IMG/VR virus record: IMGVR_UViG_3300020042_008651
Location: 1 to 35,171 of that record
Length of the DNA: 35,171 bases
Reading direction: 5' to 3' (one strand)
From: a virus
Lineage: Duplodnaviria; Caudoviricetes
How positions within the stretch are numbered: the stretch's first letter is position 1; each line of letters opens with the position of its first letter. The position numbers were made by a program, and so were the translations under genes. Under the pieces are notes generated by a model that saw only the letters and a list, made by a program, of their open reading frames with translations, was not told where the DNA came from and ran no database searches. Positions 12,100 to 32,456 of the stretch are shown here, piece by piece.

Positions 12100-12513
12100 T
12101 TATTTTATAACAAGAATTTGTTTTCTATTACCACTCTTTTTTAATGAGATGTGCAGCCAGGTATAGTCATATTCATTTATCAATTGGTCATATTCCAAAC
12201 CACTTAATTTTATGAAATCAAATATCTTTTTATTTTCTAATTTTGGACCGGCGGTAATATCAATTGAATTTCCTAAAACGTGACCACTTGTCTTACTTCC
12301 TCTGACTTCCTTATTCAATTCTTTGCACCGATAAAAACTGTTTATTATTATTGGTTTATCATACCACTCTCTAATCGGCTCAAATAAGTTTTCGGCAACA
12401 TATTTCATAGCATCAAGTTCAAGTTTATTAGGCTCATTCTTTATGCCTTTATCAATTGCTTTTTGACTAAATATTGACTCTTGTAAAGTTATGTGTTTAC
12501 TTATTATTTCCAT
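12100..12513 (-). CDS. Endolysin, peptidase M15 family
   Basis: SFYRC..LN..V, SGHVLGNSID (SxHxxGxxxD) and WLHIS. Confidence 0.9.
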   Translation of the reverse strand: MEIISKHITLQESIFSQKAIDKGIKNEPNKLELDAMKYVAENLFEPIREWYDKPIIINSFYRCKELNKEVRGSKTSGHVLGNSIDITAGPKLENKKIFDFIKLSGLEYDQLINEYDYTWLHISLKKSGNRKQILVIK

Positions 12514-15313: not shown

Positions 15314-17299
15314 TTATTTAATTTTTTTTACAATTGACTGAACCCATATGTGTCTACAATATGGCAAATTTACGTTTTTCAACGGGTCGTGATACCATCC
15401 TCCTCTTCTTGTAAATGCATCATAGTTCGGTATGCCATACAAGTCACCCAAATCTCTTCCAATGTTTATGATATCTTCTCTTGAAAAGTATCTTTCATTC
15501 TGCATCATAGCTGAACAAAACTCTCTGCTACTATCTCCAATTAGATCAGGTGCCGTATCTCTTAATGCATACTTGTATCTTATAAGTAATTCATCGAAAG
15601 ATGGCAGTTTTGTTGCATCTCCTTTAGTGGTTACATTCAATACTCCTTTATTATCTAAAATTAATTTTTCACCTACCAAAGTTTCAATCAATCCTTCCAC
15701 ATTATCCATACTAATCTTTAATATTTTGGCAATATTTTCTTTAGTAATATTTGGATTCTTTTTAATTAAATCTAATAGACCTTTTTCACCATCGGTCATT
15801 GCGAAATCTTGACTTGAAAGCATAGTTTTTTTACGTTTTAAAGTAACAAAATTCTCTGCTGGTTCCCCATATTTCATAAATACTTCCAAGTCCAAGTTAT
15901 CTTGAGCTGAAGTAAAATCGTGGTTGCACATTCTATCACTATTAAATCCCGCAGGTGCGGCAGAATCTGCACTTGGTGTTATTGTATCTCCTCCTTCTAA
16001 TCCTTGTTTGCCTATGATTGCTCTTACCTCATTTGGTGTTAACTGATTTAATACTTTAGTAGCTACCAAAGGACTTAATGCACCTAATGAATCGGCTACC
16101 GTAGATGTCACATTTTTGATTTCTAATGGTTTTCTTCCTACTATATCTCTCATTTCATCTTTAGTTAAAATACTCATTAAAGTAGCTTCACTAAAGTTTG
16201 GCATAATAGGTTCTAAAGGTTTAATTTCTAACTTGCCTTTTATCGGTGCAAATAAATTATAAATGTTTGTTTGTACTTTTTGTTTTGGTGATATATAAGT
16301 TGCCGAGAATATGTTGTAAGCATCTATCATTTCATCTCTTCCACCAAGTTGACCTGCTACTCTCACACCGAATATCATTGGTGAGGTAATTTTATGTCCA
16401 ACAAAAATTTCTTGTTGAATAGTTTCATTCAATGCCTCATATTTTTGTGCAAAATCACCAGCATTTAAGTCTTCAATTCTTGCTGCTCTTGCGGGGTCAT
16501 CTACGAAATCAATAACAATAGAACCTGCACTATCGGTAGAGGTAAATTTATTCTTTAATTTACGTTCGGTAACCTTCATTTCATCATCGGAAGGGACACC
16601 GTTCATAAACGTAATAAATTTACTTCCTTTAAATCCATTTTGTATTTCTGCACGATGGAAATTTGCTATTTCAGCATCGGTAATAATAGCTGGAACAGCT
16701 CCAATATATTCAGGTAATGTGTATGTATTTAAATTTGGTCTATAAGACTTGTAATAGTAAATAGACTCAGCTTGTTTTTTTGCATTAGGGTCAAAAGGAG
16801 GATAAGTTTTATCTATAAATGGATTGTGTTTTTCTTGACCATTTTCATCCATCCATTCATTGCTTGAATAGAATTCTGTATTATCATAATTACTTCTTAT
16901 TTTGCAATAGTCAACGTGGTAAATATCATAACCTTTTCCTCCTTTTCTTCCAACTACTTTTAAATAGCATCCTCCAAATAATTCACAATCTAAATTTGTC
17001 TTAGATAATAAATCATTTAAGGTCTCATACGGATTAGGATTATCAATAAAACCTTGCAAAGATATTATATCTTTCCCTTCCATATTTGTCTGATCAAATA
17101 CAAACCCTTGACCATTTATATAAAGCTGTTTTGAGGTTATAATAGCATTATGTTTTGCACTTCTATTGAAGAGAGTAACTAAATACTCAGGGTAGTTATT
17201 TGTCTCACCATACTTAATGAAATCTTTTCCTTTTGTTTCAACAAACATCGGGACTTTATCATTTGAGAAACCTAATTTTATAATTGAATCTTTATACAT
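15314..17299 (-). CDS. Portal protein with C-terminal winged-HTH and MuF-like domains
   Basis: YGETNNYP..SAKHNAII and GHKITSPMIFG portal motifs; wHTH-like segment 15620-15802; SREFC...RGGW...CRHIW tail. Confidence 0.8.
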   Translation of the reverse strand: MYKDSIIKLGFSNDKVPMFVETKGKDFIKYGETNNYPEYLVTLFNRSAKHNAIITSKQLYINGQGFVFDQTNMEGKDIISLQGFIDNPNPYETLNDLLSKTNLDCELFGGCYLKVVGRKGGKGYDIYHVDYCKIRSNYDNTEFYSSNEWMDENGQEKHNPFIDKTYPPFDPNAKKQAESIYYYKSYRPNLNTYTLPEYIGAVPAIITDAEIANFHRAEIQNGFKGSKFITFMNGVPSDDEMKVTERKLKNKFTSTDSAGSIVIDFVDDPARAARIEDLNAGDFAQKYEALNETIQQEIFVGHKITSPMIFGVRVAGQLGGRDEMIDAYNIFSATYISPKQKVQTNIYNLFAPIKGKLEIKPLEPIMPNFSEATLMSILTKDEMRDIVGRKPLEIKNVTSTVADSLGALSPLVATKVLNQLTPNEVRAIIGKQGLEGGDTITPSADSAAPAGFNSDRMCNHDFTSAQDNLDLEVFMKYGEPAENFVTLKRKKTMLSSQDFAMTDGEKGLLDLIKKNPNITKENIAKILKISMDNVEGLIETLVGEKLILDNKGVLNVTTKGDATKLPSFDELLIRYKYALRDTAPDLIGDSSREFCSAMMQNERYFSREDIINIGRDLGDLYGIPNYDAFTRRGGWYHDPLKNVNLPYCRHIWVQSIVKKIK

Positions 17300-17301
17300 A
17301 T

Positions 17302-17718
17302 TTATGGTTGGTATACTATTAATGTGTTATCTACTGAATCATAAGTTATGTCGGTATTATTTGCAAATACTACATAAACTAATCCATCTTCTACTTCTTT
17401 TGTTATAAAAGGAACTGCCGCTTGTGCATTAGCAAGTCCACTTGTGTTTGCTAAACTTGTTTGATAAACTTTGTAATCATAATATCCTTGAGAACCAAGT
17501 GTGACTTCTCCATTTAAAGTGTTAGCACTTGCCTTTTCAATTATTGTAAACTTGTTGAATCTATCTTTGTATGCACTTATGTCCGTTCCTATAAAATAAT
17601 AACTAACAAGTGTTTGTTGACTCACAAATTTAAACAAATAAATCGGATTAGAAATAGTAGTATTTTCTTTTAAGGTTACTATTATATTATTTGTTGCCGA
17701 TTTGTTAAACTTTATCAT
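17302..17718 (-). CDS. Putative head-closure / structural protein
   Basis: Start moved to ATG 17718 (MIKFNK, 138 aa); the track's GTG start lies within the terminator. Confidence 0.6.
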   Translation of the reverse strand: MIKFNKSATNNIIVTLKENTTISNPIYLFKFVSQQTLVSYYFIGTDISAYKDRFNKFTIIEKASANTLNGEVTLGSQGYYDYKVYQTSLANTSGLANAQAAVPFITKEVEDGLVYVVFANNTDITYDSVDNTLIVYQP

Positions 17719-17754
17719 ATCTAATAATATATTAATTGTTATTTTTATATGCAT

Positions 17755-17781
17755 AAAAAAACCCACTCATAAAGAGTAGGT
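17755..17781 (-). terminator. Rho-independent terminator after the major tail gene
   Basis: ACCTACTC-TTTAT-GAGTGGGT followed by T6. Confidence 0.75.
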
Positions 17782-17809
17782 CTTTTATATGAAAACAATG
17801 AAAAGAAAT

Positions 17810-18328
17810 TTAAACTATAATAGTTGCTAACAATGATGCTAATGCTTCTTGTGAGAAGGCTTTTTCCTGACCCATAAAAGTCAAACTGTAGCCATTAAAC
17901 TCATTCATATTTGCACCACTTGTAGCAGTTCCACCTGACACTTGCATACCATTTTCTTTACCAAAAATAAATGCTTGACCAGACTTCATTTCTACAATAA
18001 TCACACATCTATTTTGTATCAATAATGATAATTTAGCAGATGTGGCTTGTTGCATCTTTAAGAAGTTTGCGGTGATAGTTTGCTCATAAGCAACGGTACC
18101 GATTGCAGGGTCTGATTGTATTGCTACACTTGTCATATTAGCACCACGAGGTTCTAACTCATATTTATAAAAACGAGTGCCTGTTGCTTTAGTGATTGCC
18201 GAAACAATTCCACTTGAATTTTCAGCATATGATGTTACATTAGCCAACTCGGTAATGTATAGATTTTTTATTCCGCCGACCGTGTCTTTACAGTCTAAAG
18301 CATAATTTGATACGATTGCACAAGGCAT
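17810..18328 (-). CDS. Major tail (tube) protein
   Basis: MPC...CKDTVGGIK start, FGKENG, NGYSLTF; follows the capsid gene. Confidence 0.7.
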   Translation of the reverse strand: MPCAIVSNYALDCKDTVGGIKNLYITELANVTSYAENSSGIVSAITKATGTRFYKYELEPRGANMTSVAIQSDPAIGTVAYEQTITANFLKMQQATSAKLSLLIQNRCVIIVEMKSGQAFIFGKENGMQVSGGTATSGANMNEFNGYSLTFMGQEKAFSQEALASLLATIIV

Positions 18329-18343
18329 TTTGATTAGGGGTTT

Positions 18344-18377
18344 AAAAAAGGTAGTAACTTTATGCTACTACCTTTTT
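18344..18377 (-). terminator. Rho-independent (bidirectional-type) terminator after the capsid gene
   Basis: AAAAA-GGTAGTAGC-ATAAA-GTTACTACC-TTTTTT. Confidence 0.8.
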
Positions 18378-18383
18378 GGTTAA

Positions 18384-19325
18384 TTATATTGTGAATTTAA
18401 CAATCTCAGCTACTTGAGAAACTTGAACACCAAACTTGTATTCCATTTTGAATCTTACCAAGTCAAAGTCTTCTGAGTACCAGAATTTAAAGGACTCTTC
18501 TTCGTTCTGAAGGTCAACTCCCATAAACATATTAGCATCTTGTAAAGCATAAATTACGTTTACGTTGTTCAAACCTGGACAAGAAACTACTTTTACATTT
18601 GTTCCGTGGATAAACATTTCGCCTAATGCATTGTCAACCGCTGTATAGTTAAATAAATTTGCGTTAGTTAATGCGATTTGATACATTCTAAAAATGTGAG
18701 TTCCAACGTTTACTTTTAAATCTGTTTTGTCTAATAAAGCTATTGGAATTGCTTTGTAAACACCTTGCATAATTGAAATAATGTTTGCTTCAGTGATTGC
18801 TGTAACTACAGCACTTACATAAGCAGTTGCATTAGCTTGAATAGGACCAGTTGCGGCATTGATAATTTTTACCAAACCATCAAATTTGTTTAAGTTAGGA
18901 TTACCACTTGCTGTATCTCCTGTCCAAATAGCTACTTCTAATTGTTCAGAATTTGTACCTGTAACGGTATTTACAAAGGCTTGGTCAATACCACCAGGTA
19001 AAGCACTATAATTAGAACCTGGAGATAATAATAATTGAGTGTATTTTGCTTCAAGGTCTTTGATACAGAATTCTTTGTTAACTTTGATTTTACCAATGGT
19101 CAAAGTTCTACCACTAATTGTTGTGTTTCCACTTGCTGAAAATCCACAAGTTGAACCATCTTGCCAAAATAAAGTGTCCGATAAAGTTGGAACTTCTATT
19201 GAAGATTTTACTCCAGTTAAAGGAGTCATTCTTGAAGCTGTTTTTGCTTCAAACATTGCCTTTGTAATCAAAACATTTTCGTTCGGATTGGTATAGGCTG
19301 CTAAACTTGATACTACGAATGCCAT
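18384..19325 (-). CDS. Major capsid protein
   Basis: 313 aa, IWTGD..FDG motif; follows the scaffold and precedes a terminator. Confidence 0.85.
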   Translation of the reverse strand: MAFVVSSLAAYTNPNENVLITKAMFEAKTASRMTPLTGVKSSIEVPTLSDTLFWQDGSTCGFSASGNTTISGRTLTIGKIKVNKEFCIKDLEAKYTQLLLSPGSNYSALPGGIDQAFVNTVTGTNSEQLEVAIWTGDTASGNPNLNKFDGLVKIINAATGPIQANATAYVSAVVTAITEANIISIMQGVYKAIPIALLDKTDLKVNVGTHIFRMYQIALTNANLFNYTAVDNALGEMFIHGTNVKVVSCPGLNNVNVIYALQDANMFMGVDLQNEEESFKFWYSEDFDLVRFKMEYKFGVQVSQVAEIVKFTI

Positions 19326-19353
19326 AATTTTTTTTTATTTATTTTTTTTTAAT

Positions 19354-19896
19354 TTATATGTTACTATTTTTCCATTCAGCAATTCTATCTGCGGCTGATT
19401 GTTTTGTTTTTGCTTTTTTAAATGTTGAGTTCTTAGGTGCTTCAACTTCTACGATTGGTTCTTCAGCAATTGTCTCAACTATTTCTTTTATTTCATTGAA
19501 TTTTGAATCTACATTTTGACTTGCTAATTCTACTGCACTAAACATCTCCGACATTTTAGTTTCCATTTCAGCAATTTTCTTTTCACAAGATGCCATTCTC
19601 TCTTCATAAGCACTCATATCATTAGGTGCTGCCATTTCTTCTTCTACTTCTTCTGATTTTGGTTCTATCATTGTTACCAAACCTCCTACTGTAGTTACTA
19701 AAGTACCATCACTTAATTCGTGAGTAGCATCGGGAGCAGGTGTAGTGTTACCATCGGTATCAATTACCATAATTGCTGAACCTTCACCCAATTCACCTTC
19801 CCATTGTATAAGTGTGCCATCGGCTAATTTTGCATCATTAAAATTTTCATTTTGAAACAATGCTTTTATCTTTGCGAACGCATTAAATTTTGTCAT
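19354..19896 (-). CDS. Capsid scaffolding protein
   Basis: Acidic, repeated L(A/S)DGT, coiled coil; directly upstream of the capsid gene. Confidence 0.7.
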   Translation of the reverse strand: MTKFNAFAKIKALFQNENFNDAKLADGTLIQWEGELGEGSAIMVIDTDGNTTPAPDATHELSDGTLVTTVGGLVTMIEPKSEEVEEEMAAPNDMSAYEERMASCEKKIAEMETKMSEMFSAVELASQNVDSKFNEIKEIVETIAEEPIVEVEAPKNSTFKKAKTKQSAADRIAEWKNSNI

Positions 19897-19915: not shown

Positions 19916-19931
19916 TAATAATATACATAAT
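19916..19931 (-). repeat. 16-bp inverted repeat, left copy (contains the late motif TATATTATT)
   Basis: taataatatacataat is the reverse complement of 21027-21042. Confidence 0.8.
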
Positions 19932-20041: not shown

Positions 20042-20087
20042 TTTGCGAATATCAAAAGTATTTTTACATTTGTGAGGTCAAAAAGAC
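20042..20087 (+). promoter_or_regulatory. Early promoter, -33/-7 boxes plus GGTC element
   Basis: TTTG-N19-TACATTTG-TGA-GGTCAAAAAGAC. Confidence 0.8.
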
Positions 20088-20096
20088 ATAACAATT

Positions 20097-20225
20097 ATGA
20101 GAAACAAGATAAAAGAAATCAAAAAATTAAGCCCACTACATAGAGAATATTTAATCTATAAAATCTATATGAGTGCTTTCGTAATAGCAATATTATTAAT
20201 GGTCATTAACAATTTAATCAAATAA
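20097..20225 (+). CDS. 42-aa single-TM peptide (not in ORF track)
   Basis: MRNKIKEIKKLSPLHREYLIYKIYMSAFVIAILLMVINNLIK, first ATG after the promoter. Confidence 0.6.
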   Translation: MRNKIKEIKKLSPLHREYLIYKIYMSAFVIAILLMVINNLIK

Positions 20226-20230
20226 ACAAA

Positions 20231-20839
20231 ATGGAAAACGTAAAATTAAATTTAAGTTCAGTAAAAGTAGGAAACTACAGATTTGAAATCTATGAAGAGG
20301 CTCTACAAGTAGGAGGAGGTATTATTATGAAGTATTTTGCAAAAAAGTTTCTTTTAACTCCTAAAGGTAAGTATCAAAAAGAAAAGTGTTTGTTCTTTTA
20401 TGCTTTTAGAGATGAATCAGTAAGAGATGAGAAAGTGAGCAAAAATATTGACAATATCACTGCCAATTTAATTACTCTTGAGAATGAGAAGGCTCAAAAA
20501 AAAGAGGCTCAAAAAAACCTTGTTAATCCTTTTAAAGTAGGTTCTTTGTTTTATGATTCGTGGGGTTATGACCAAACTAATATTGATTTCTTCCAAGTAG
20601 TTGAAGTTAAACCAAAGTCAGTAGTATTGAGAAAGATTGGTCAAATATTCCACAAGAGTGCAGGTTTTATGTGTGAATATGTTCTTGCTGATGTTGACAA
20701 TTTCATAGGAGAGCCTTTCGCAAGACCATTGAGAGTTAGTAGAGATGGAAAGTCAATTGGAGTGAATGCGGAGATGTCAAGAAGAGGGTTGTTGTTTGAA
20801 TATCACGGTCAGCCTAAGTATCAATCACATTATGCATAA
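20231..20839 (+). CDS. Conserved hypothetical phage protein
   Basis: 202 aa with FKVGSLFYDSWGYDQTNIDFFQVV motif (SH3-like barrel suspected). Confidence 0.8.
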   Translation: MENVKLNLSSVKVGNYRFEIYEEALQVGGGIIMKYFAKKFLLTPKGKYQKEKCLFFYAFRDESVRDEKVSKNIDNITANLITLENEKAQKKEAQKNLVNPFKVGSLFYDSWGYDQTNIDFFQVVEVKPKSVVLRKIGQIFHKSAGFMCEYVLADVDNFIGEPFARPLRVSRDGKSIGVNAEMSRRGLLFEYHGQPKYQSHYA

Positions 20840-21002
20840 TACGAGCAGAGGCGGGAAAAGAATTGGTTCAGGCAGAAAATCTGGACCAATCACAAAGACA
20901 ATCTCATTCCGAATCACTGAAGAGTTGTACTTTGAAACAAAAAATAAAAATATAATTGATTTAAACAAAAAATTTGTTCAATGGGTAAAAAACTTAAAAT
21001 AA
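20832..21002 (+). CDS. Small DNA-binding protein (GGxRxGxGRK hook plus RHH-like strand)
   Basis: Start moved to ATG 20832 (56 aa): RGGKRIGSGRK..KTISFRI. Confidence 0.65.
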   Translation: MHNTSRGGKRIGSGRKSGPITKTISFRITEELYFETKNKNIIDLNKKFVQWVKNLK

Positions 21003-21026
21003 CAAAAGAATTTTATAATAAATGTC

Positions 21027-21042
21027 ATTATGTATATTATTA
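21027..21042 (+). repeat. 16-bp inverted repeat, right copy (late motif facing ORF 21088)
   Basis: attatgtatattatta. Confidence 0.8.
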
Positions 21043-21087
21043 TCAATAAAAATACATATATTGTAAACCTAATAAATAATTTAAAAA

Positions 21088-21258
21088 ATGGATATAATAA
21101 TAGATAATAAACCAGTTGAGATTGAATCTTATGAAAAGGTTCTTACTGAATTAATTAATGGTAGACCACCAGTCAATGAGAATGAAAGAGAAATAGTTGC
21201 TGAATTAGAGCAAATGAAAAAGGAAAATTTTATTCCTTATATTCCTTCTAACCTTTAG
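21088..21258 (+). CDS. 56-aa acidic protein, candidate antitoxin (not in ORF track)
   Basis: MDIIIDNKPVEIESYEKVLTELINGRPPVNENEREIVAELEQMKKENFIPYIPSNL; 12 D/E vs 6 K/R; A-rich leader; 11-nt tail-to-tail overlap with the zeta gene. Confidence 0.7.
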   Translation: MDIIIDNKPVEIESYEKVLTELINGRPPVNENEREIVAELEQMKKENFIPYIPSNL

Positions 21259-22162
21259 ACTTATTTAAAAACTTTTTATAAGCGGTAGGATTATAAATAG
21301 TTTCTTTACCATTAGCTTTACTATATATTAATTTTGGAGTAGTTCCATTATTATCATATAAATGTAATTCATTAAATACATTATTTTTAGATAGCTTAGG
21401 GAATATAGTGGATATTTCTCTATGCATATCTTTAATATATTTAGGAGGTATGTGTCTTCCAGTATCAGCTGCTCTTTGTTTTGCTCTATCTAAAGATGTT
21501 TTAACATCTGTAGTTACATAATGAGCAATTACATTTTTACCCGCATCTCTTTGCATTTTAACTTTGTCTGCCACACTTTGATAACTACCATCTCCAACCG
21601 CATCAATAACCGCATCAAATTTATTATTTGCTGCATTTTTAACTATATCTTTTGAAAGTTTAGAACTTTCCTCGTGTACTTTTGATGCTGCTTTAAAATT
21701 TTTACTCTCAAGCATTTTATTATATTCTGGCAATTCTTTTTTTATTCCATCTGGGTCAATTTTAAGAATACCACTTGGATATGTAACTAATCCAGATGAC
21801 TCTAAAGAACTTTTGCCTGTTGCCGGCGCTCCTCCTAAAAAATAACTTGTTCCTAAATTAGTTGAACCTTTTGACATTTCTTTATCAATTATTTCTTTTT
21901 GAAATGCTACTCTCTCTTCATTAAAATTACCATCTTTATCTGAATATAATTTTAAGGTGTCAATTTCTGGACTTGATAATAATTTATCTACATTTGCTTG
22001 TGCTTCTTTCTGATATTTGGCAGTTATTTCTTGAGGAGATTGTCTCCCTATTTTACCAATATTATTTTTTTCAGAGTCACTTCCTCCTTCTTTAGTTCTA
22101 CCACTTCCTGGACCTCCAAATCTTACAAATCTTATTAATTCTATTGCTTGTTCTCTTTTCAT
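21248..22162 (-). CDS. Zeta-toxin (PezT-like) P-loop kinase with N-terminal GGPGSGR leader
   Basis: GGAPATGKS Walker A, IDPDGIK..LPEY, VHEESS, VIDAVG, R...TGRHIP and LYDN motifs. Confidence 0.85.
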   Translation of the reverse strand: MKREQAIELIRFVRFGGPGSGRTKEGGSDSEKNNIGKIGRQSPQEITAKYQKEAQANVDKLLSSPEIDTLKLYSDKDGNFNEERVAFQKEIIDKEMSKGSTNLGTSYFLGGAPATGKSSLESSGLVTYPSGILKIDPDGIKKELPEYNKMLESKNFKAASKVHEESSKLSKDIVKNAANNKFDAVIDAVGDGSYQSVADKVKMQRDAGKNVIAHYVTTDVKTSLDRAKQRAADTGRHIPPKYIKDMHREISTIFPKLSKNNVFNELHLYDNNGTTPKLIYSKANGKETIYNPTAYKKFLNKSKG

Positions 22163-23055
22163 TAATTATCAATTTGTTTAACTATATCAATCATTTGTTC
22201 AATTAAATCTTTTGGTTTCTCATCTATCTTTTCGGTCTTAAAAACACCTTCAACCGAGAACCCTTTAAACTCACCTGTCTTGATAAAATTATTCCAAATA
22301 TCTTCGTTATCTACTTTATAACTACCGAACCAACTACCATCAGTTAAGTTAAATCCTTTTGGAGAATTGATATCTCTTGAACTATCAATGATGAAATTTT
22401 CAATCATATAAACACCATCCAACATTTTGGATGAATCGTGCATCATATTTACCTCTTTATCCTTTGAATGCTTGAAGAATTTATTTCTTAGGTTGTATAT
22501 ATCCACCGCAGTAAAAACTCCGTAATACTCGCCACTTTCATCTCTTCTATAAATTGGTAAATCGGCAACCATCAAAGCACCACTAATAACTTTTTTTTCT
22601 TTGTCGGCAACAAATGATATAAACTTATTTTTTTTATCAATTTGCTCAAGTTTTCTTGTTGCCCATTCAACACCTGCATCTCCTCCCCAAGCTAACCACA
22701 TCAAACGACCACAACCATCTCCTAATTTCTTATCACTATTTTGTCTATGTCTTTCAAAGGCACTCATTCTCGCTATGGTTTCACGAGTTATCGGTTCTCC
22801 TTTTGCTAATTGATTAGCCCGTTGTTTTCCAACACTTGTACCGCAATCTCCCCATCCATTTTTCTCGGCATAATCCAAAGCAGTTTGTGCATTTTCACTC
22901 GCTTGTTTTGGGTAGTCATCATAGCTTTCAAAGTCTTGCTTATTAAATGTTTGCCAATTTAATTCAATAGCAGGATTATCTACTAATGCCATTGCCTCTA
23001 ATTGACATTCATCTTCTTCTCCAACTACAAATCTATAAATAGGTAATTTGTCCAT
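22162..23055 (-). CDS. Prohead serine protease (XkdF-like) with ~98-aa inserted domain
   Basis: LVDNPAIE, NMMH and GFSVEG motifs; insertion at aa 43-140 containing WLAWGGDAG. Confidence 0.8.
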   Translation of the reverse strand: MDKLPIYRFVVGEEDECQLEAMALVDNPAIELNWQTFNKQDFESYDDYPKQASENAQTALDYAEKNGWGDCGTSVGKQRANQLAKGEPITRETIARMSAFERHRQNSDKKLGDGCGRLMWLAWGGDAGVEWATRKLEQIDKKNKFISFVADKEKKVISGALMVADLPIYRRDESGEYYGVFTAVDIYNLRNKFFKHSKDKEVNMMHDSSKMLDGVYMIENFIIDSSRDINSPKGFNLTDGSWFGSYKVDNEDIWNNFIKTGEFKGFSVEGVFKTEKIDEKPKDLIEQMIDIVKQIDN

Positions 23056-23074
23056 AAGTAATAATATATTTATT

Positions 23075-24940
23075 TTATTTTATTGTAGCTTTTCTTAGTA
23101 TACCTTTTACTTTATCTTGGGTGTTAGTAATGTCGGTTTCAACTACTATCACTTTTCCCGTAGTGTTTATATTATTTATGTCAATTGGTTTATTTTGATT
23201 TAACATAGCACCACTTAATGACTGAGGAATTCTTGGTATTGTTTGAGACATTGTAGGAAGATTACCTCCTCCTCCTCCACTTTGATTTGGAATAGGTGTA
23301 TCAATAATTCCTTTAACCGCAGCAAGTCCCGCCAAACCGATTGCAATTGATGAGGCAATAGCTAAAGGTGTGTTTGCTGCATTGGCGGCTAAAGTCTTTG
23401 CTATTGCGGTGTAGGTAGATATAGTTGCTGCAGCTATGGATAACACTTTACCTTCAACGGTATTCTTTCCAACCAAATCACTTATAACATTTAATGAGTT
23501 TGCATAAGAATCCAATAATTGCAATTTTGCATCTTTCTCTTTTCTTGCTATTTCTATTTTTGCATCACTTACTTGCTTCTCGGTTAAAAGATGTTTCTCC
23601 CCTAACTCATCTAATGCTTTATACCTTTCCTCTGTGCTTTCTAACTCATCTTTTGCTATTGCTTTTAAATCTTCAATATGAGATGCCTTTTGTTCGGCAG
23701 TTGCTAAGTCTATACTATCTTGTCTTCTCTTCTCTCTATCTTTTACAAATTTGTCTTTATCTATTTCAAGTTTTTCAATACTTCTATTATAGTCTCCTTG
23801 AGTTATTACTTTATTTTTTAGATCAGTATCTAATATCTTTTTTTCAATTTTTTGTTGAGCCTCTAATTCGGCTACAGTCCTCGTACCTTTTGCTTTTAAT
23901 TGGTCAAGTTCAAATACTAATTCAGATTTCTTTTCCGCTTGTATTTTTAAATTTTTTTGCTTCTCTAACTCTTTTAAATCTTTATTATGACCAGCAATTA
24001 AAACCTTCTCCTCTTGTCTTAATTTCTCAAGTTCATCTTTGTTATCTACTGCAGCTTTTTGTTTTAATCTATTTAGTTCTAATTCGTGCTTATAAGTTTT
24101 TTGACCACTTGCTCTTTCTATTTCTAATTCCTTTTCTCTTTGCTTGATTAATCGGTCTAACTTTTCTGCTGCTGCTGCTTCTTCATTTGCTTTTATTCCT
24201 GCTTCTGCACCCTTCTTATAATTGCCTACTATATTATAACCATTTTTTATTTCTTCTAATGCACCTTTAAAATCACCTTGTATTAATTTACTAAATGTTT
24301 TGAATGGCATAAGTATAGCATTCTTAATAACTTCACCTGCACCATAAGCTACTTCACGAAGTTTATCAAATATTTTACCCATATCATTAAAGATAGGGAA
24401 TGAATTTTTAACTACTTTTGATATTGCTTCCCAATTTGCATAAAGTAATCCTGCTGCTACAACTATCAAACCTATTCCCGTAGCACCTATTCCTGCTTTG
24501 ATTCCTTTTAATGCATCTCCTGCAACATTCTTTAAGTTCTTCCAAGCATCTCCCATTCCCATCAATCCATTCAAACCTGTAGCTAAAGCAATTGCACCTT
24601 GAGTCTTTGCCATTACTTTATTCAAGTCTTCACTTTCACTTCCCATTAATGCCATTGCACCTTGCATAGCCGCAAAACCATTTGCCGCAATACCAACTGT
24701 ATCGGCTAATGCTTGAAACTTTTTCTCGGGATGAAAAGCATTAATAGTATCTTTTGTATCACTTATTTTATCTCGTAATTCTCCTGCTCTTTTTGCCGCG
24801 TTAACGAATGCCTCACTACCTTCTTCAAGAGTCATCAATTCATTTGTTACTTGTCGTAATTCTGACTTTAAACTCTTAACCGATGCTACCGCAGAAGTTG
24901 CTTTTACTTCAACATCTACTACTACTTTTTCTGTTGCCAT
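23075..24940 (-). CDS. Tape measure protein
   Basis: 621 aa, A/G-rich hydrophobic segments flanking a long K/E coiled coil. Confidence 0.8.
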   Translation of the reverse strand: MATEKVVVDVEVKATSAVASVKSLKSELRQVTNELMTLEEGSEAFVNAAKRAGELRDKISDTKDTINAFHPEKKFQALADTVGIAANGFAAMQGAMALMGSESEDLNKVMAKTQGAIALATGLNGLMGMGDAWKNLKNVAGDALKGIKAGIGATGIGLIVVAAGLLYANWEAISKVVKNSFPIFNDMGKIFDKLREVAYGAGEVIKNAILMPFKTFSKLIQGDFKGALEEIKNGYNIVGNYKKGAEAGIKANEEAAAAEKLDRLIKQREKELEIERASGQKTYKHELELNRLKQKAAVDNKDELEKLRQEEKVLIAGHNKDLKELEKQKNLKIQAEKKSELVFELDQLKAKGTRTVAELEAQQKIEKKILDTDLKNKVITQGDYNRSIEKLEIDKDKFVKDREKRRQDSIDLATAEQKASHIEDLKAIAKDELESTEERYKALDELGEKHLLTEKQVSDAKIEIARKEKDAKLQLLDSYANSLNVISDLVGKNTVEGKVLSIAAATISTYTAIAKTLAANAANTPLAIASSIAIGLAGLAAVKGIIDTPIPNQSGGGGGNLPTMSQTIPRIPQSLSGAMLNQNKPIDINNINTTGKVIVVETDITNTQDKVKGILRKATIK

Positions 24941-24944
24941 TTAT

Positions 24945-27725
24945 TTATAATATTATTGGGTGTAATCTGTATTGTAATTCTATTAACATTTGACTGTTAC
25001 CTGCTGCTCCTAAATTTCCTGCTGAATGTATCTCTAATGCTAATTCTTTAAAAGGTAAATTATTAATATTTACACCTCTTTGTTTTGTCGCAGTTGTAAC
25101 GTGAGTAATTCCGTTATCAAAATCTAATATGTGAGTACCATCTCCATTAAATTGCAAATGTAATTTATGGTTATTGTAAGCAGTCTTTGGTGTGGTTGTT
25201 CCAAAGAATACAGTAATATAAGCATCATATACTTCGGTCCAAAACCCTTCTATTGATGCTAATAATTGAACAGGAGTTGTATGTAAGTTACGAAGTTCTG
25301 CAATCGTTAGAACTCTTGAAAGAAGTAATGGTTGGTCAATATTATTTATTACTGTTTCACCATCTCTCACACTTTTATAATTTGATGTGCCTATATAAGT
25401 TGTATTATTATTATTTAATTGATTATTCGCCCCACCAAAAACATTTATTAAGTCTCCATTTACTAAATTATTATTTGAGTTAATTAAATTAGCTGATCCT
25501 TGTACTCTATTCTCAAGACCACTTACATTTAAGTCAACATCTTTTTCATATTCGTTTCCATTCGGGTCAACATTTCTAAAAAAAGTAAGTTCCCCATCTC
25601 CTCCATTCCAAGTTTGAACTCCTCCACTAAAAACAGGTGCTACGGCTAACTTTAAAAAAGTAAGTTTTGCTGGTTCCTCACTATTGGAATCAAAGTCTAT
25701 TTCATAAAGCCTATAGTATTGTTTATCTATAAAATAATAATTTCTAAAAGATAATTTGTTTACTTCATTTTCACTTAATTTAGCATATAGAGTAACTGTC
25801 TTACTATCTTTATTTGTAATCTCTTGGAGTCCTTTTTTATGGTATAGATTAAAAAAATTATTGTCGGTATATGTTACACTTCTATTTGTTGTGTAAAATA
25901 TTTCTTTTGGAGTATAATAGTTGACATCATAAGTTGGACTTGTTACACTATTTAAATGCCCGACATACGGATATCTATCAAAGTAATGATAAGTATTATC
26001 TGGGTCTTTTAAATGGAAGAAATTAGTTCCAAAACTATTACTTAAACCACCAGCATATAATAATCTCAACTTGCTTGTGCCATCGGTTCTATTACCACTT
26101 GAATCTCTAAAAACTATTTGAGAAAACACCACACCATCATTCTTAGATTTTATCAATGGAGTTGGTGCAAAGACTACACTTGTGGTGAATGTATCATTTA
26201 CAAAATCATTTACTACACCAATTTTTGCACTTCCATATGGTTGGTTATATCTAAGTAAATAATCATTATTTGCGGCATCTTTATCTATTGCCATTTGATA
26301 ATTATATTCTTTAAATCTTAACTCTGATAATGGTTTAATTTCTATAGGTCTTGACATATCCACTTTGCTTGTCAAGTCAACTATTTCTTCTAAATAGAAT
26401 TGGTCTCTCGGTTCTATTATTAGTTTCTTTGGGTCAAGTGGATTAGGCTCAATATATAAGTTGAACAAGTTAATTACCGATACTAAAAAGTCACTTTGTT
26501 TTATATCACTTGGGAGGCAATTTGCAAGTAGCATAGTGTCACCAACAGCAATAGCTGAATCTATAACTCCATTAAAAAATGAACCCGATTTGAATATTAC
26601 ATTTACTGTACTTGCCGTAGCAAATCTTAATGTAAAATATTTAACTACTATCTCATCTCCTGCTTCACAATAAAACTCCGTAGTGAAATTACTTGTTCTA
26701 ACCGATGGACTAATTAATGAGTTATCATAAGATTGTGTTACACTACTAAATACATTAGTACCATTTTTATGTATTTCGTAATTAAAGAAAACATTAGTTG
26801 AACATTGTGAAATTATACTACAAGCAAATTTATATTTTGCACTTTTTCGTGCAGTAAAAGTAAATGTAGTATTATCGTATCCAGGTGGAACGGTATCTTG
26901 AATAACATTATTAAAAGGAACTGATGCCGAACTACCAAATCCAAATGTAATAGGACTACTATCGGTTGTTCTATCTGCCTCAAATGTATTAGCCGTTACT
27001 TGTGCCTCACTTAATAATAATTTATTTTGAGTGCAAGGAACTACTAAATTATTATAATGCCCACTTGTTAAAAATGAAGATTGAATCCTATATCCCGCAT
27101 CTTTAAATATTTGCTCAATTATTGTTCTTAAAAATATTTGTGGTTTCCAATTGGTAGTAAAGTATCCTCTTTGATTATTACTTAACCCCAAATCAATTAA
27201 ACCATAATAATATCCTCTTGTGTGACTTGGTGACCAACTTGCCTCAATGTTTGTATAATTCCAAACGTGGTTGTAAGCACTTAAATTTAATTGACTTAAT
27301 TTTTTATCTCCTAAGTCTTGGAAAAGGTTTGCCGTTTTACCAATGATTACTATTTCATATTCTATTTGGTAGTCATCTAATACATTTATATTTGTCAATT
27401 GAAGGTAACCATCAATCATTACGATATTGTTCTTATAAAGTATTGCATTAGCCTTTAAATTAGGGTTGAAGTCTGGTGCAAAATTATAAGTGTTGGTATT
27501 GTTTACCGACCTTGCTAAATTAAATATATTACTAAAGATGTCATTATTGTTATGGGTGCCAGGCAAAGTGATGGTCTTGGTGAAATCACTTTTTCTTTCA
27601 GCAATATTTTGGATGTCAATAATACTTTTATTAATTGGTAAAGCTACATTATCATACAAATCTAATTCATATTCAACTATGTTTGCTCCTGCAATTTGAT
27701 TAATTACTAATCTATTTTGATTCAT
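24945..27725 (-). CDS. Large tail tip / hub protein
   Basis: 926 aa, ELDLY..DIQ..KSDFTKTITLPGT..N N-terminus, FNLYIEP, Asn-rich C-terminal part. Confidence 0.7.
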   Translation of the reverse strand: MNQNRLVINQIAGANIVEYELDLYDNVALPINKSIIDIQNIAERKSDFTKTITLPGTHNNNDIFSNIFNLARSVNNTNTYNFAPDFNPNLKANAILYKNNIVMIDGYLQLTNINVLDDYQIEYEIVIIGKTANLFQDLGDKKLSQLNLSAYNHVWNYTNIEASWSPSHTRGYYYGLIDLGLSNNQRGYFTTNWKPQIFLRTIIEQIFKDAGYRIQSSFLTSGHYNNLVVPCTQNKLLLSEAQVTANTFEADRTTDSSPITFGFGSSASVPFNNVIQDTVPPGYDNTTFTFTARKSAKYKFACSIISQCSTNVFFNYEIHKNGTNVFSSVTQSYDNSLISPSVRTSNFTTEFYCEAGDEIVVKYFTLRFATASTVNVIFKSGSFFNGVIDSAIAVGDTMLLANCLPSDIKQSDFLVSVINLFNLYIEPNPLDPKKLIIEPRDQFYLEEIVDLTSKVDMSRPIEIKPLSELRFKEYNYQMAIDKDAANNDYLLRYNQPYGSAKIGVVNDFVNDTFTTSVVFAPTPLIKSKNDGVVFSQIVFRDSSGNRTDGTSKLRLLYAGGLSNSFGTNFFHLKDPDNTYHYFDRYPYVGHLNSVTSPTYDVNYYTPKEIFYTTNRSVTYTDNNFFNLYHKKGLQEITNKDSKTVTLYAKLSENEVNKLSFRNYYFIDKQYYRLYEIDFDSNSEEPAKLTFLKLAVAPVFSGGVQTWNGGDGELTFFRNVDPNGNEYEKDVDLNVSGLENRVQGSANLINSNNNLVNGDLINVFGGANNQLNNNNTTYIGTSNYKSVRDGETVINNIDQPLLLSRVLTIAELRNLHTTPVQLLASIEGFWTEVYDAYITVFFGTTTPKTAYNNHKLHLQFNGDGTHILDFDNGITHVTTATKQRGVNINNLPFKELALEIHSAGNLGAAGNSQMLIELQYRLHPIIL

Positions 27726-28888
27726 TATAAAGATTGTCTATATCGTGAGTATGTGTATTCTATATCAAAAGAAACATTAAACAACTTTCTATCATTCAAA
27801 AATTTCTTTGTCTCATAATTTTGATTAGATATATTTACTGAAACAAAATTAGTTGAACTGCGTTCAAGATAAATAATTGGTGATGTAGATAACTGCTCAA
27901 GTAATAAACTTTGCTCTTCAGTAATCCAATCTGATTGTATATTGATTGTATCATTTATTGTAGTGTTATAATTTGTTTTAAGCCTATCTGATTTCAAATA
28001 ACTAATAGGTAATGGTGCTTTGAATTGTTTACGTTCAATGGTTTCACTTTGTCTTGAGTTTCTTATAAAATTAAATGACTCAAATGCACCTAATTTATTT
28101 AACCAATGTAAACGAATGGTTGAATAGTATGAACATTGTGGAGTATATGTAAAAGTTTTTGATGCTAATATTACATCAGCACTTGTTTTAACTTGAATTG
28201 TATAAGTTCCATTCGCTAAAGTCAAACCTGATGTATCAAGAATCCACTTACCTGCGTTAATATTAAATAGATGTTCTTTTGCGGGTAAAGTTATTGTTTG
28301 AGTATAAGTAGTTCCTGACAATAAAACAACTTTAGCTGCCACTCTATTAGGGTCAAAAAAAGTAAGTATTTTATTTTGACTTGTTTCAATATTTTCATTT
28401 ACCGATGTGTTTGCATTTAGAAAACCAAAACCACTTACATTGCAATTCGCATATGAAGTAGGAGTGAAATCTTCAAAATCAAATATTCCGTTTGATGCAA
28501 ATTTAAAACTATTTACACTTGGTGTCGTAGGGTCACTAACTAATACTGCACTCAAAGTTGGAACTCCTGCAATATCATATAGTTCACGACATTCAATATA
28601 ATATTTTAAACGTGAATTAGTATTTGCCGCAACATAACTTGCTTGAGCATTTAAAAAGTCATAGCTAACATAGTTTTTAAGCACACTACCAATATCAAAA
28701 GTTAATGAACTACTTGAAGGTTGTGCAGGATATTTTAATCGTGCTAACAAAGTTGAAGTAGTAGTTTCTTTTATATCAATTATAAAGTTGAAATTTGGTT
28801 GAGCAGTATTAGTGCTTGTGATTGTATAAACCACTTGATTGAATGCCCCTATAAAAGCATTAGGAGATGTATTTATTGTGATTGCCAT
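27725..28888 (-). CDS. Tail structural protein (distal-tail-like)
   Basis: 387 aa, WLNKLGAFESFNF and SPIIY motifs; TAATG-coupled to the hub gene. Confidence 0.65.
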   Translation of the reverse strand: MAITINTSPNAFIGAFNQVVYTITSTNTAQPNFNFIIDIKETTTSTLLARLKYPAQPSSSSLTFDIGSVLKNYVSYDFLNAQASYVAANTNSRLKYYIECRELYDIAGVPTLSAVLVSDPTTPSVNSFKFASNGIFDFEDFTPTSYANCNVSGFGFLNANTSVNENIETSQNKILTFFDPNRVAAKVVLLSGTTYTQTITLPAKEHLFNINAGKWILDTSGLTLANGTYTIQVKTSADVILASKTFTYTPQCSYYSTIRLHWLNKLGAFESFNFIRNSRQSETIERKQFKAPLPISYLKSDRLKTNYNTTINDTINIQSDWITEEQSLLLEQLSTSPIIYLERSSTNFVSVNISNQNYETKKFLNDRKLFNVSFDIEYTYSRYRQSL

Positions 28889-28890
28889 AT

Positions 28891-29532
28891 TTAAAATTCT
28901 TGAACTATTTGAGCGGTTATTTTTCTTCCTATTTCTTTTGACATTGCTTGTGATAATATTCTTAATCTCTTTTTACCAACGGCTGGTTCTACATAATTTA
29001 CCGCTTTGATTCCACTTAATTTTGTAGCTATTGCCATTCCTTTTGCTGCCTTCTCTATTGCATCGTAATTAGCTACCTTTTTTTTGTTTTTAGTATTGTA
29101 TAGTCTTATTCTTTTTGTTGGAGTCTTCACACTCTTTAAACCCAGTTTAGATATATACTCTTTAAAACTATCTATCATTGAATCGGGAGTTCCTAAGTTC
29201 CTAAATTTGAATGGTGAGTTAGGTGCTTTAGCTTTATTTCTTAATCCTTGAACTCCTTTATCCAAATATTCCCAATGGTCTTGCATAGTAACTATTTGAA
29301 TCTTTAAATTACCATTTGCATCAATCGGAAAAGGTTTTGGTGCAAGGTCAGCAATTAGTTTTCCCCTATCTCCTATTCTCGTTTTCTTTGACAAAATTTT
29401 TCGCATAATAAGAATACTTGCATTCGCCCACTCAACCATAATTTTCTCAGCACCACTTCCTAATTCTTTTTCAAAATTATCGGTAGATGAGCCATACTTA
29501 CTTCCTATCTTAGTTCCTTGACCTTTTGCCAT
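28891..29532 (-). CDS. Putative neck / tail-completion protein
   Basis: 213 aa, basic, YLDKGVQG and GIKA motifs. Confidence 0.55.
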   Translation of the reverse strand: MAKGQGTKIGSKYGSSTDNFEKELGSGAEKIMVEWANASILIMRKILSKKTRIGDRGKLIADLAPKPFPIDANGNLKIQIVTMQDHWEYLDKGVQGLRNKAKAPNSPFKFRNLGTPDSMIDSFKEYISKLGLKSVKTPTKRIRLYNTKNKKKVANYDAIEKAAKGMAIATKLSGIKAVNYVEPAVGKKRLRILSQAMSKEIGRKITAQIVQEF

Positions 29533-29786
29533 AGCCTTTTTTCTTCTTCGCTTTTATCCTTGTAAAATACAACCGTATTTAAAAACTCAATTATGTTCAT
29601 ATCAAAATAGAAGTCCCATTTACTCCTATCATTATTTGACATATTATTTATGACACTAATCCAACCCCACTTTTCTTCAAATGTTCTACCACTTTGCTGT
29701 TCTCGTTCGCTACCTTCACTGACTTCTTCACTTCCTCCTCCAAGTAAGTTTGGATATTGTCGGCTAATTCCTTGAAATATTTGCAA
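29505..29786 (-). CDS. Tail assembly chaperone, -1 frameshift extension (gpT-like)
   Basis: Opens in the -1 frame exactly at the T9 run of the upstream ORF; FEEKWGW motif. Confidence 0.7.
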   Translation of the reverse strand: MQIFQGISRQYPNLLGGGSEEVSEGSEREQQSGRTFEEKWGWISVINNMSNNDRSKWDFYFDMNIIEFLNTVVFYKDKSEEEKRLWQKVKELR

Positions 29787-30265
29787 AAAAAAAGCATTAT
29801 AGGATATGATTGTGTTATCTTCATATGCTTGTAAAACAAGTCGGCAATCTCTTTATGCTTATCTGGATTGTACTTTAGTTTTTTACCATACCAAGTTCTC
29901 TCCACACAAATACTCGCCATTATATTATGAATATTATTCACAATATCTTTCTCACTCTTACAAAAAGAAGTTGCATCTATGTATTGATTCGCACCCATTT
30001 TTTGAGTTTGCCATATACACTCAAACCTTCTCCATTTTACTCTAAACTTTAATTTTAGTTTAGTATCACTTGTTAGCTTTTCAATGTCATTGAACTCTTT
30101 TAATGCATTAGTGAGTTCCTCAATAGGCATAGACTCTATTTCATCAAATGTTTTGTTTGTTACAATAGCCAACATTTTAATGCTCTTATCCAAAATATCG
30201 GTTTCAAAATCAGATATAGTCTTGCATTGAATAAATTGTCCTATTGTTAAATTCTTTAGTTTCAT
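29648..30265 (-). CDS. Tail assembly chaperone (gpG-like)
   Basis: 205 aa, contains the slippery codons CTT TTT TTT TGC (LFFC). Confidence 0.7.
   Translation of the reverse strand: MKLKNLTIGQFIQCKTISDFETDILDKSIKMLAIVTNKTFDEIESMPIEELTNALKEFNDIEKLTSDTKLKLKFRVKWRRFECIWQTQKMGANQYIDATSFCKSEKDIVNNIHNIMASICVERTWYGKKLKYNPDKHKEIADLFYKHMKITQSYPIMLFFCKYFKELADNIQTYLEEEVKKSVKVANENSKVVEHLKKSGVGLVS
29785..29793 (-). other. Programmed -1 ribosomal frameshift slippery site
   Basis: T TTT TTT heptamer in the correct X XXY YYZ phase. Confidence 0.7.
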
Positions 30266-30297
30266 TTTATAAATAATATATTTAAGTTGGTTATTTG

Positions 30298-31476
30298 TTA
30301 AACACGAATTGTGGCATATCTTCCTTGAGGTCTATTGTTTAATTTGTTTAATGCAAAATACCGAATAGCATCTAAACTATGATTTGAATGGTCTATTGGT
30401 TTTCCAGTCAATTTACCATCTCTATCTTTCTCCCATTGGTAAGACCTCAATTCTTTTATGGTATTAGTAGAGTTCTTAGTTATATTCATTTGATACCTTT
30501 TTAAGATATCTATGCCGATTTTAATTGAGTCTGGACCCTTTTGTGCTGACTGCATATTAAAGCCTTGTAACCGCAATTCTTGTATTGATTTTGGTTCGGC
30601 ACTATCTGCCACAATATCATAAGGTCTTGTGATGTTTATTGACTTCATAAAGTTTCCGATGTCATTGTTTGTCATATTGGTTCGGTATAATAGTTCATCA
30701 ATATAAAGTTCATTATCCATCTTATAAATTGCCATTAAAGTTGTTGGGTCGTTTGTAAACCCGAAATCCATTGAATAACCGAGTAATTTTGCATCGGTAG
30801 GTATTCCATCCACTTGCCTCCAATTATCAAACACAACACCCTCCAAACTTCCAATTTGACCCAATCCATATACTTTCCACCAGTTCGCCCAATATGATGA
30901 GGTCTCTGCTTTTTCTTTTGCCTTCTCTATTTCTTTGACCAATGCAATATCTAATGCCTCATTGTCTTTGTAGGTAAGGATTATATGCTCGGCATCCTTA
31001 TCACTCATAAGTTCCGTATGCACCCAAAACTCACTACTTGGATTAAAGTCTAAGTAAATGAAGTTTTTTGTTCTTATAGCTAATTGATGGTATGCCTCAA
31101 AGTTTACATTGTTTGCCTCATTGATGAACAAAACATCTCTTCTTGCACCTCTTAACTTATTAGGCTGATCGGCACTAAAGAATTCAATGTAAGATTTATT
31201 TTTGAAGGTATATTTTAAAGTGGATTTATTAAATTGATTGTCATTATAGAATCCAATCCAATCCATTATTTTTAAAAAATCTTTTAATGCACCCCTGCGG
31301 ATTTGTGGTATTGTCTCGGCTACTATGCTAATCTCACTATTTGGATTCTTGTATGCATAATCTATGAGCAACGGAATTATACTAAAGGTCTTTGAACTTG
31401 ATGTCCCACCCTGCACAATTCTTATCCTTTTTTTTAAATTAGATATCTTTGTTTGAGCCGTAGTTTCTTTTAGCAT
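30298..31476 (-). CDS. terL: Terminase large subunit (PBSX/SPP1-like)
   Basis: QGGTSSSKT Walker A, FINEAN Walker B, DFNP, DFGFTNDP, ADSAEP and NHSLDAIRY. Confidence 0.95.
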   Translation of the reverse strand: MLKETTAQTKISNLKKRIRIVQGGTSSSKTFSIIPLLIDYAYKNPNSEISIVAETIPQIRRGALKDFLKIMDWIGFYNDNQFNKSTLKYTFKNKSYIEFFSADQPNKLRGARRDVLFINEANNVNFEAYHQLAIRTKNFIYLDFNPSSEFWVHTELMSDKDAEHIILTYKDNEALDIALVKEIEKAKEKAETSSYWANWWKVYGLGQIGSLEGVVFDNWRQVDGIPTDAKLLGYSMDFGFTNDPTTLMAIYKMDNELYIDELLYRTNMTNNDIGNFMKSINITRPYDIVADSAEPKSIQELRLQGFNMQSAQKGPDSIKIGIDILKRYQMNITKNSTNTIKELRSYQWEKDRDGKLTGKPIDHSNHSLDAIRYFALNKLNNRPQGRYATIRV

Positions 31477-31509: not shown

Positions 31510-31926
31510 TTATTGACTTTCTTCATTTTTCTTGATGTTCAAATCAAGACCTTTAAAAATTTCTCTCTCACCCGATACTTCTACTTCTTGTTTTTCAATA
31601 TATCCTCTCTTCTTTCCTTTAGTTTTTAAGTAGAATATTATTGAACTCGGATTCGGTGCATCTTTAATTTCTACTATGTCTCCTCTGTTTGTCACTACTT
31701 CGTGACTTGCTCCTTGCATCAATACATTTAATTGAGATTCTGCAAAATCAATAGCCATATCATTGATACCTTCTACTGCTTCTTTATAAGTCTCATCTTC
31801 TCTCATCCATAGGTAATGAGTAGTTCTATCTATGCCTACCATCTTTGCTGCAGTAGTAACAATTCCAAGACTTTTTTCAAGAGCCTCAATCATTGCTTTT
31901 TTTAGTGTTGAGTTTTGTTGTTTCAT
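31510..31926 (-). CDS. terS: Terminase small subunit
   Basis: N-terminal HTH (AAKMVGIDRTTHYLW), IIFYLKTKGKKRGY; upstream of terL. Confidence 0.8.
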   Translation of the reverse strand: MKQQNSTLKKAMIEALEKSLGIVTTAAKMVGIDRTTHYLWMREDETYKEAVEGINDMAIDFAESQLNVLMQGASHEVVTNRGDIVEIKDAPNPSSIIFYLKTKGKKRGYIEKQEVEVSGEREIFKGLDLNIKKNEESQ

Positions 31927-32456
31927 TATTTTAATTTATAAAGTATTGACCATTGAGTAGGTAGGTTTAAATTCTTGACAAATTCGTATCCAAGTTTATC
32001 AAAAAGTATATTCCATTCTTCTTCAGTTTTAATATTGATATGTCCCCATTCTTCATCACCATTTGTCTTGTTAGGTGTTGAACTAAATAATATATTTTTA
32101 GGTTTTATTTTCTTAAATAGTGCTTTAAGTTCTTTATCGGTCATATGCTCTGCAACTTCTATGAATACAAGCAAGTCAGTTGTAATAGGTTTTGGCAATA
32201 CAATTAAGTGAGGTAAGTTTTCTGCCATATAATTACGATGTGCTTCAAAATACTCATAGCATACCACGTTAAATTCTTTGTTATAAAAAGAGTTTGAGTA
32301 AGCACCTACACCTGCTCCGTAATCTAATACTGATTCAAATGTTATCTCTTTTGCTATTGCATCAACTGTTGCATCACATAGGTTTATAAAATCGTTATTA
32401 AATGGACTTATTCCCATTTTAAGTTCTGCTTCTAAAAATTCTTTATCTGTTATCAT
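31926..32456 (-). CDS. Class I SAM-dependent methyltransferase
   Basis: VLDYGAGVG, EVAEH, FSSTP and GHIN. Confidence 0.85.
   Translation of the reverse strand: MITDKEFLEAELKMGISPFNNDFINLCDATVDAIAKEITFESVLDYGAGVGAYSNSFYNKEFNVVCYEYFEAHRNYMAENLPHLIVLPKPITTDLLVFIEVAEHMTDKELKALFKKIKPKNILFSSTPNKTNGDEEWGHINIKTEEEWNILFDKLGYEFVKNLNLPTQWSILYKLK

Follow-up and report, generated by a model that had tools for sequence, protein, structure and literature searches.

A zeta-fold kinase and its predicted small immunity protein as a candidate exchangeable cassette on a phage prohead protease

Introduction

In the MuF toxins of phages, the C-terminal part attached to a head protein is a variable effector, and a small gene lies downstream (PMC5576092, PMC3482391); Apk2/Tis1/Aph1 is an experimentally tested MuF system (PMC10083569). 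Why phage heads carry toxin domains, and whether these are injected, is stated to be an open matter for MuF toxins (PMC10083569). The locus described here raises a related question: what is a kinase of the zeta/PezT type doing directly behind the prohead protease of a phage, with a tiny gene facing it from the opposite strand? An earlier note had read the two genes as a convergent toxin-immunity pair, co-expressed late, with the kinase held inactive during assembly and then packaged or used to aid lysis. That reading had missed the protease fusion, the RelA/SpoT domain as alternative cargo and the modular swap. We propose, with a probability of about 0.6, that the tail of the prohead protease carries a swappable cassette, in which the kinase is the effector and the 56-aa protein provides the cognate immunity. 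Because the two are exchanged at that tail as one unit, against a different enzyme with partner genes of its own, the kinase is probably a toxin that is packaged in the head, with the tiny protein as predicted antidote.

Layout of the locus

The window is a whole virus record of 35 kb, with genes for terminase, portal, tape measure, a capsid-like protein, recombination and an endolysin (12100-12513), and its minus strand holds nearly all of them. Between the prohead protease/kinase genes and the probable scaffold gene, so called because it is placed between protease and capsid gene, lies a plus-strand island (20097-21258; Table 1), the sole positive GC-skew block of the window (about 20-21 kb). 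From a promoter match and from homologues in Chitinophagaceae genomes, we infer a Bacteroidota host.

Table 1. Features of the protease-kinase locus and of the opposite-strand operon.
Feature	Position	Strand	Basis
XkdF-family prohead protease	22162-23055	-	PF14550 XkdF E 2e-10; NMMH at residue 203, GFSVEG at 265
Kinase leader: short helix ending in Phe, then GGPGSG	22100-22162	-	Alignment
Zeta-fold P-loop kinase, 304 aa	21248-22162	-	PF06414, AlphaFold model, fold search
56-aa two-helix protein, predicted cognate immunity protein	21088-21258	+	Homologues, co-occurrence, cargo swap
16-nt motif with TATATTATT, candidate late promoter of the 56-aa gene	21027-21042	+	Identical to scaffold-gene leader
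Small ORF: 56 aa from 20832 or 78 aa from 20766	20832-21002	+	Variably present in cassette
202-aa protein, phrog_37844	20231-20839	+	Homologues in cassettes of zeta- and RelA/SpoT-bearing phages
Bacteroidota -33/-7 promoter match TTTG-N19-TAnnTTTG	20042-20072	+	Heads opposite-strand operon 20097-21258
Probable scaffold gene, other flank of inserted cassette	19354-19896	-	Position

Within the island, the gene for the 202-aa protein (191-202 aa in relatives) travels with cassettes of both the kinase and the RelA/SpoT type, and does so in either orientation, whether the carrier is XkdF or MuF. No homologue of it stands between protease and scaffold in plain-protease phages, and the protein belongs to large viral families of the ESM Atlas that are without annotation. 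The product of the ORF at 20832-21002 may be ribbon-helix-helix-like; its 56-aa form has no family match.

Two further aspects of the record may be mentioned. Its gene order is odd, running through terminase, tail genes, protease, scaffold and capsid, and the portal gene comes only after those for the capsid (15314-19896 vs 23075-31476). Two glycosyltransferase-like genes and a methyltransferase (702-1571, 31926-32456, 32997-34106) suggest glycosylation of DNA or virion.

The protease as carrier

The protease stop codon TAA overlaps the kinase ATG as TAATG at 22162, just as the earlier note had it. In the window and its close relatives the kinase is separate from the protease and has its own leader, and this leader copies the helix-Phe-GGPGSG junction of fused relatives. 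Fusion prevails among the 67 full kinase matches: 56 have the XkdF motif GFSxEG upstream and are fused behind the prohead protease, and two are fused to MuF. P0068, a 68th match, has only the leader in common; the domain that bears it there is RelA/SpoT-like and narrowly misses the Pfam cut-off (E 2.5e-5). A search for longer forms brought in a further XkdF fusion, a further MuF fusion and a kinase whose N-terminus is unannotated. The same kinase clade is found on MuF in L060, P0064 and P0345; judged as a MuF toxin, the kinase of the window has no PF04233, which is present in the relatives P0064, P0066 and P0345.

The linker between protease and kinase takes the form [FLMY]-GGPGSG or WD/YD..RD..GR, and every one of the 56 protease fusions has F, L, M or Y before GG (53) or WD/YD (3). 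To judge from these sequences, leader and junction would act as a capsid-targeting and protease-cleavage element. Since either the prohead protease or MuF is the usual fusion partner of the kinase, packaging in the head is plausible, and we consider it probable.

A frameshift or assembly error was considered as the origin of the TAATG split and rejected: the same split, with its own leader, recurs in L001, P0002 and P0068, and in the kinase frame a stop codon lies two codons ahead of the ATG. The protease also holds an insert of about 105 aa (about residues 42-146; 22618-22932), with a phrog_2859 match over residues 46-151, which is absent from the L001 orthologue (a protease of 193 aa). Flanked by Phe residues like the cargo linker, and found in L032, L034 and L054, which also carry a fused kinase, this insert may be a second swappable cargo slot.

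Exchange of cargo at the protease tail

Sister phages bear a RelA/SpoT domain, a 72-74-aa ORF and an HD hydrolase instead of the kinase and small gene. In L071-L073 (the start of L074 is missing), XkdF is fused to the RelA/SpoT-like domain and the co-directional 72-74-aa ORF comes next; the position of the 56-aa gene is taken by an HD hydrolase on the opposite strand. The label 'Tis1-like' for the 74-aa family is an indirect one, since the family aligns with an ORF whose match to Pfam Tis1_ImmP is below the cut-off (E 2.5e-4).

How tightly small gene and cargo are associated can be gauged from the best 80 of at least 586 protease matches, ranked by similarity to a kinase-bearing protease, which comprise 70 plain loci, seven with RelA/SpoT, two with the kinase and one with other cargo. 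Behind the plain proteases the scaffold gene follows directly in 67 cases, a contig end cutting the other three. Among these best 80 loci the small family is found in the two kinase loci only and the 72-74-aa family in the six complete RelA/SpoT loci only; the small family is also found in 0 of 77 loci of a RelA/SpoT search, of which 73 are near-copies of one other phage type.

Exchange is seen between close relatives. Between L021, which has the kinase, and L155, which has RelA/SpoT, the protease domain compared is identical, and cargo types are interleaved on a protease tree, with 12 label changes for the kinase (51 proteases, including a random 22 of the 59 distinct plain ones; bootstrap values had not fully settled). 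When the DNA of L021/L155, L024/L158 and L026/L073 is compared, the match breaks off immediately behind the linker and sets in again where the ~191-aa gene ends; from these borders, in all three pairs, the swapped block is the kinase, the small gene and its short leader. Plain-protease phages are without the entire cassette. As in polymorphic toxin systems, the relatives thus have a conserved N-terminal carrier with an exchangeable C-terminal effector (the kinase of the window being split from the protease), and an adjacent small gene changes with the effector.

The small gene could in principle be a member of the operon of the 191/202-aa gene rather than the partner of the kinase. This was rejected, as RelA/SpoT phages keep the operon and replace the gene, and the bacterial genome G472 has a kinase-small pair with no such operon downstream.

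Two variants were noted in passing. L167 (3501-4415) has a third type of cargo, helical and of about 110 aa, after GGPGSG on the protease, without cassette or partner gene, and in L060 (4852-6717) and L057 (1985-2678) the operon of the cassette runs the other way round with respect to the head genes than it does in the window.

The 56-aa gene and its association with the kinase

The convergent ORF of the earlier note is present, overlaps the 3' end of the kinase gene by 11 nt (21248-21258) and is a conserved, real gene. It is under coding constraint (dN/dS 0.03-0.47 in all 11 pairs listed, out of 21), and 135 proteins are homologous to its product, forming 130 clusters at 50% identity. The acidity ascribed to it holds for the window (pI 4.4, net charge -6) and not as a family trait, with net charge running from -8 to +3 among 22 distinct homologues. 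Its predicted model consists of two helices (pLDDT 83), and it has no match in Pfam, PHROG, NCBIfam, Foldseek-PDB or the ESM Atlas, nor among GenBank phages.

Whether the small ORF accompanies zeta homologues convergently had been proposed as a check, and it does so for 27 of the 31 distinct kinases of loci L001-L061 (counting that of the window and leaving out two loci in which the kinase ORF is incomplete), a count over loci that are not independent because they are related by descent. The other four are L035 and L057, which end too early, the MuF fusion of L039/L060, and L041, a kinase 28% identical and without the small gene; in L060 a small-gene homologue is co-directional, 1.7 kb downstream of the MuF-kinase. 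Identities of kinase and small protein correlate at 0.90, vs 0.44-0.48 with the protease, a correlation for which linkage alone accounts.

Bacterial genomes extend this picture. Across 401 Chitinophagaceae genomes the small family occurs in four, one of which was the centre of the search, and kinase matches in eight; the only close kinase homologue (E 4e-46, HEESS kept) belongs to G472, where a 58-aa small-protein homologue overlaps the kinase stop, directly downstream and co-directional, on a contig end beside housekeeping genes. When the whole phylum was sampled, one genome out of 401 had the small family, and this was the centre itself. In no fewer than five bacterial genomes, all incomplete (G001-G003, G713 and G519), the small family is present and no such kinase was found. 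The protein P0242 has a 74-aa-family domain (E 6e-7) fused to a small domain, and in L148 a small-family gene stands right behind an HD hydrolase; both fit orphan or poly-immunity use, but equally show that the small gene is able to stand alone.

Around that L148 gene (4240-5189), a 110-aa ORF, the HD hydrolase and the small-family gene (62 aa) stand in a row adjoining type I restriction-modification-like genes, possibly as a poly-immunity cluster, and in G519 (L248) a small-domain fusion lies beside a restriction-type gene. Near three other HEESS-type kinases (L041, cyanophage PSS2 gp030 and Bacteroides phage DAC16 gp76) there was no significant small-family match, PSS2 gp033 bearing a weak resemblance to the 56-aa family (8 bits, hhalign probability 4.5%). 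PSS2 itself (L151, 8297-9231) has four small ORFs, gp031-gp034, after its MuF-zeta polyprotein, with gp031 convergent and overlapping.

Taken together, co-occurrence, module swapping and the separate co-directional pair in a bacterial genome strongly support the pairing, and the 56-aa protein is very probably the cognate partner of the kinase. The convergent orientation originally claimed does not always apply, L060 and G472 being co-directional.

Fold and substrate site of the kinase

Assignment to the zeta/PezT family is borne out by the profile search, in which kinase residues 105-275 match PF06414 (E 5.9e-24), and by the AlphaFold model (pLDDT 84.8), which Foldseek places closest to S. pyogenes zeta (TM 0.60), followed by AvrRxo1 (0.57) and PezT. 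A HEESS motif is invariant in the family, as are K117 (Walker A Lys) and D138 (catalytic base) in 67 of 67 sequences, and alignment to 1gvn equates these two with K46, the Walker A lysine, and D67 of zeta.

The substrate site differs. Zeta residues T118, R120, E100 and T128, which contact UDP-GlcNAc (PMC3062530), are replaced in the sequence alignment by V189, D191, K171 and D199 (the placements of E100 and T128 being less secure), with D191 invariant and V189 and K171 nearly so across the 67 kinases; the substitution T118V abolishes PezT toxicity (PMC3062530). Measured against zeta/PezT UDP-GlcNAc kinases, the protein has the fold, the PF06414 match and the catalytic Lys and Asp, and does not have the UDP-GlcNAc contacts; the gene upstream is the protease and not an epsilon/PezA antitoxin. 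By sequence and predicted fold it would be a zeta-fold small-molecule kinase, one that should not be filed as a UDP-GlcNAc zeta toxin. By analogy with ng_zeta1, which binds UDP-sugars in a flipped mode (PMC5923241), it could nevertheless bind UDP-sugars in that way.

An altered site of this kind is also compatible with a head-delivered counter-defence or host-takeover enzyme, one inactivating, for example, an immune-signal nucleotide or an NAD-type metabolite and not toxic to growth, with the small protein as timer or regulator instead of a true immunity protein. Some long phage proteins do contain zeta-fold domains, among them one that bears the name Anti-CBASS protein Acb1, and protease- and MuF-fused nucleotide enzymes have been proposed as injected counter-immune factors (PMC9503650). 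However, a dedicated partner that swaps with its cargo, and an Apk2-like cargo with two partners, fit toxicity better, and we regard this alternative as rather unlikely. True toxicity of the kinase, with immunity conferred by the 56-aa protein, seems fairly likely.

Less likely again is a UDP-GlcNAc kinase of the classical zeta kind, kept inactive in the late phase and afterwards set free to weaken the cell wall, whether for lysis or for entry of the DNA. Zeta is indeed the closest fold, the catalytic Lys and Asp are kept, and zeta on MuF is already in print, with wall weakening proposed for MuF-zeta fusions by Iyer et al. (PMC5512222). Yet because the four UDP-GlcNAc-binding residues are not kept, one of them changed as in the non-toxic T118V form of PezT (PMC3062530), UDP-GlcNAc-driven lysis is unlikely; the phage has its own endolysin, and the RelA/SpoT domain that takes the same slot is not a wall enzyme. 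The substrate and the lysis aid suggested by the earlier note are weakened on these grounds, and this explanation as a whole is very improbable. Slimmer still are the chances of a selfish addiction or hitch-hiking module acting in the infected cell only, with nothing packaged and the small gene perhaps a mere operon neighbour: the cassette is patchy on the protease tree and orphan small genes exist in bacteria, but in-frame fusion to two unrelated head proteins, the conserved linker and the leader helix of the split form all point to the head, and the small gene tracks the kinase, not the operon.

Candidate expression signals

The motif TATATTATT lies at 21033-21041, its end 47 nt ahead of the ATG of the 56-aa ORF, and has 11 copies in the window against 3.1 expected; four of its six minus-strand copies are within 21 nt of a late-region start. 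The leaders of the 56-aa gene and the scaffold gene match over 16 nt (21027 vs 19931). Of 24 distinct sequences upstream of the small ORF, only 2 contain this 9-mer in its exact form; most other phages have a YATTTAWA-type motif of their own, read by eye, ahead of both small ORF and structural genes. As a separate matter, the common 16-mer at 19916-19931 (minus) and 21027-21042 (plus) makes an inverted pair around most of the plus-strand operon.

The 56-aa gene is the last of that operon, which is headed, 25 nt ahead of its first ORF, by TTTG-N19-TACATTTG (20042-20072), the Bacteroidota promoter consensus (PMC6847099). Such -33/-7 matches number two in the window vs 1.65 expected, which is not above chance; what speaks for the match is its position, and that a full match heads or lies within the cassette in 5 of 13 relatives. 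Since a host-type promoter match heads the operon and a late-type motif stands directly upstream of the gene, expression both early and late may be suggested, and the original view of late co-expression is at best half right.

Relation to known systems

From sequence comparison, the system fits a variant of the phage-head polymorphic toxins that is carried on the protease rather than on MuF. Like MuF toxins, it has a variable C-terminal effector on a head protein and an adjacent small cognate gene, and the trio of RelA/SpoT, small protein and HD hydrolase found in the same slot of relatives resembles Apk2/Tis1/Aph1. Unlike MuF toxins, its carrier is the prohead protease, or in the window a free leader, and its partner gene is mostly convergent and in an opposite-strand operon; MuF toxins are described in temperate phages, whereas here no integrase was seen among the 60 ORFs scanned. 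With epsilon/zeta, PezAT, AvrRxo1 and ng_zeta1 the kinase has in common the fold, the Walker A lysine and the catalytic aspartate (PMC3062530, PMC5923241). It departs from epsilon/zeta and PezAT in the replaced UDP-GlcNAc-binding residues, the invariant HEESS and a 56-aa two-helix partner without PDB match, encoded downstream or convergently as opposed to upstream.

Alt and the internal proteins of T4 have a capsid-targeting sequence; packaging is described for Alt (PMC5512222). The free cargo here likewise bears a short leader, probably removed by the head protease; its sequence is unrelated, and unlike those proteins it has a dedicated partner gene. Fusions of capsid-processing peptidases with enzymes are in print, for example Nudix on a capsid protease (PMC9503650). 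For these and the MuF-zeta fusions, the text covered describes no partner, no zeta or RelA/SpoT on XkdF and no toxin-immunity swap (PMC5512222, PMC9503650), and the domain-architecture supplements of both papers may list XkdF-zeta fusions. In the main texts covered, mostly from outside the subscription literature, neither XkdF as a polymorphic toxin-immunity carrier nor the 56-aa partner family was described.

Proposed mechanism and implications

If the kinase and the 56-aa protein do form a toxin-immunity cassette, the kinase would be made late with the head genes, would enter the prohead via the protease or its own leader helix and would be cut free after an F, L, M or Y residue, to be ejected with the DNA. 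In the cell it would phosphorylate a cytoplasmic acceptor of nucleotide type, other than UDP-GlcNAc bound as in zeta. Binding by the small protein would inhibit the kinase: an early supply, driven by the host-type promoter, would switch off the injected enzyme, and a second, late one from the TATATTATT-type motif would protect the assembling cell. A bolder and unlikely extension is a dead-man switch, in which the injected, protease-borne kinase poisons the cell unless the genome survives to transcribe the 56-aa antidote from the host promoter, with Chitinophagaceae hosts capturing orphan antidotes.

Near-identical phages provide natural plain, kinase and RelA/SpoT versions of the locus, with sharp module borders, a second carrier and a candidate cut site. 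To these are added a new family of small partners and a zeta-fold kinase whose substrate site is altered, and together they make pairing, substrate and processing directly testable with two short genes. Were the dead-man switch true, cells that destroy phage DNA would be punished for it, and competing phages would be told apart by toxin type.
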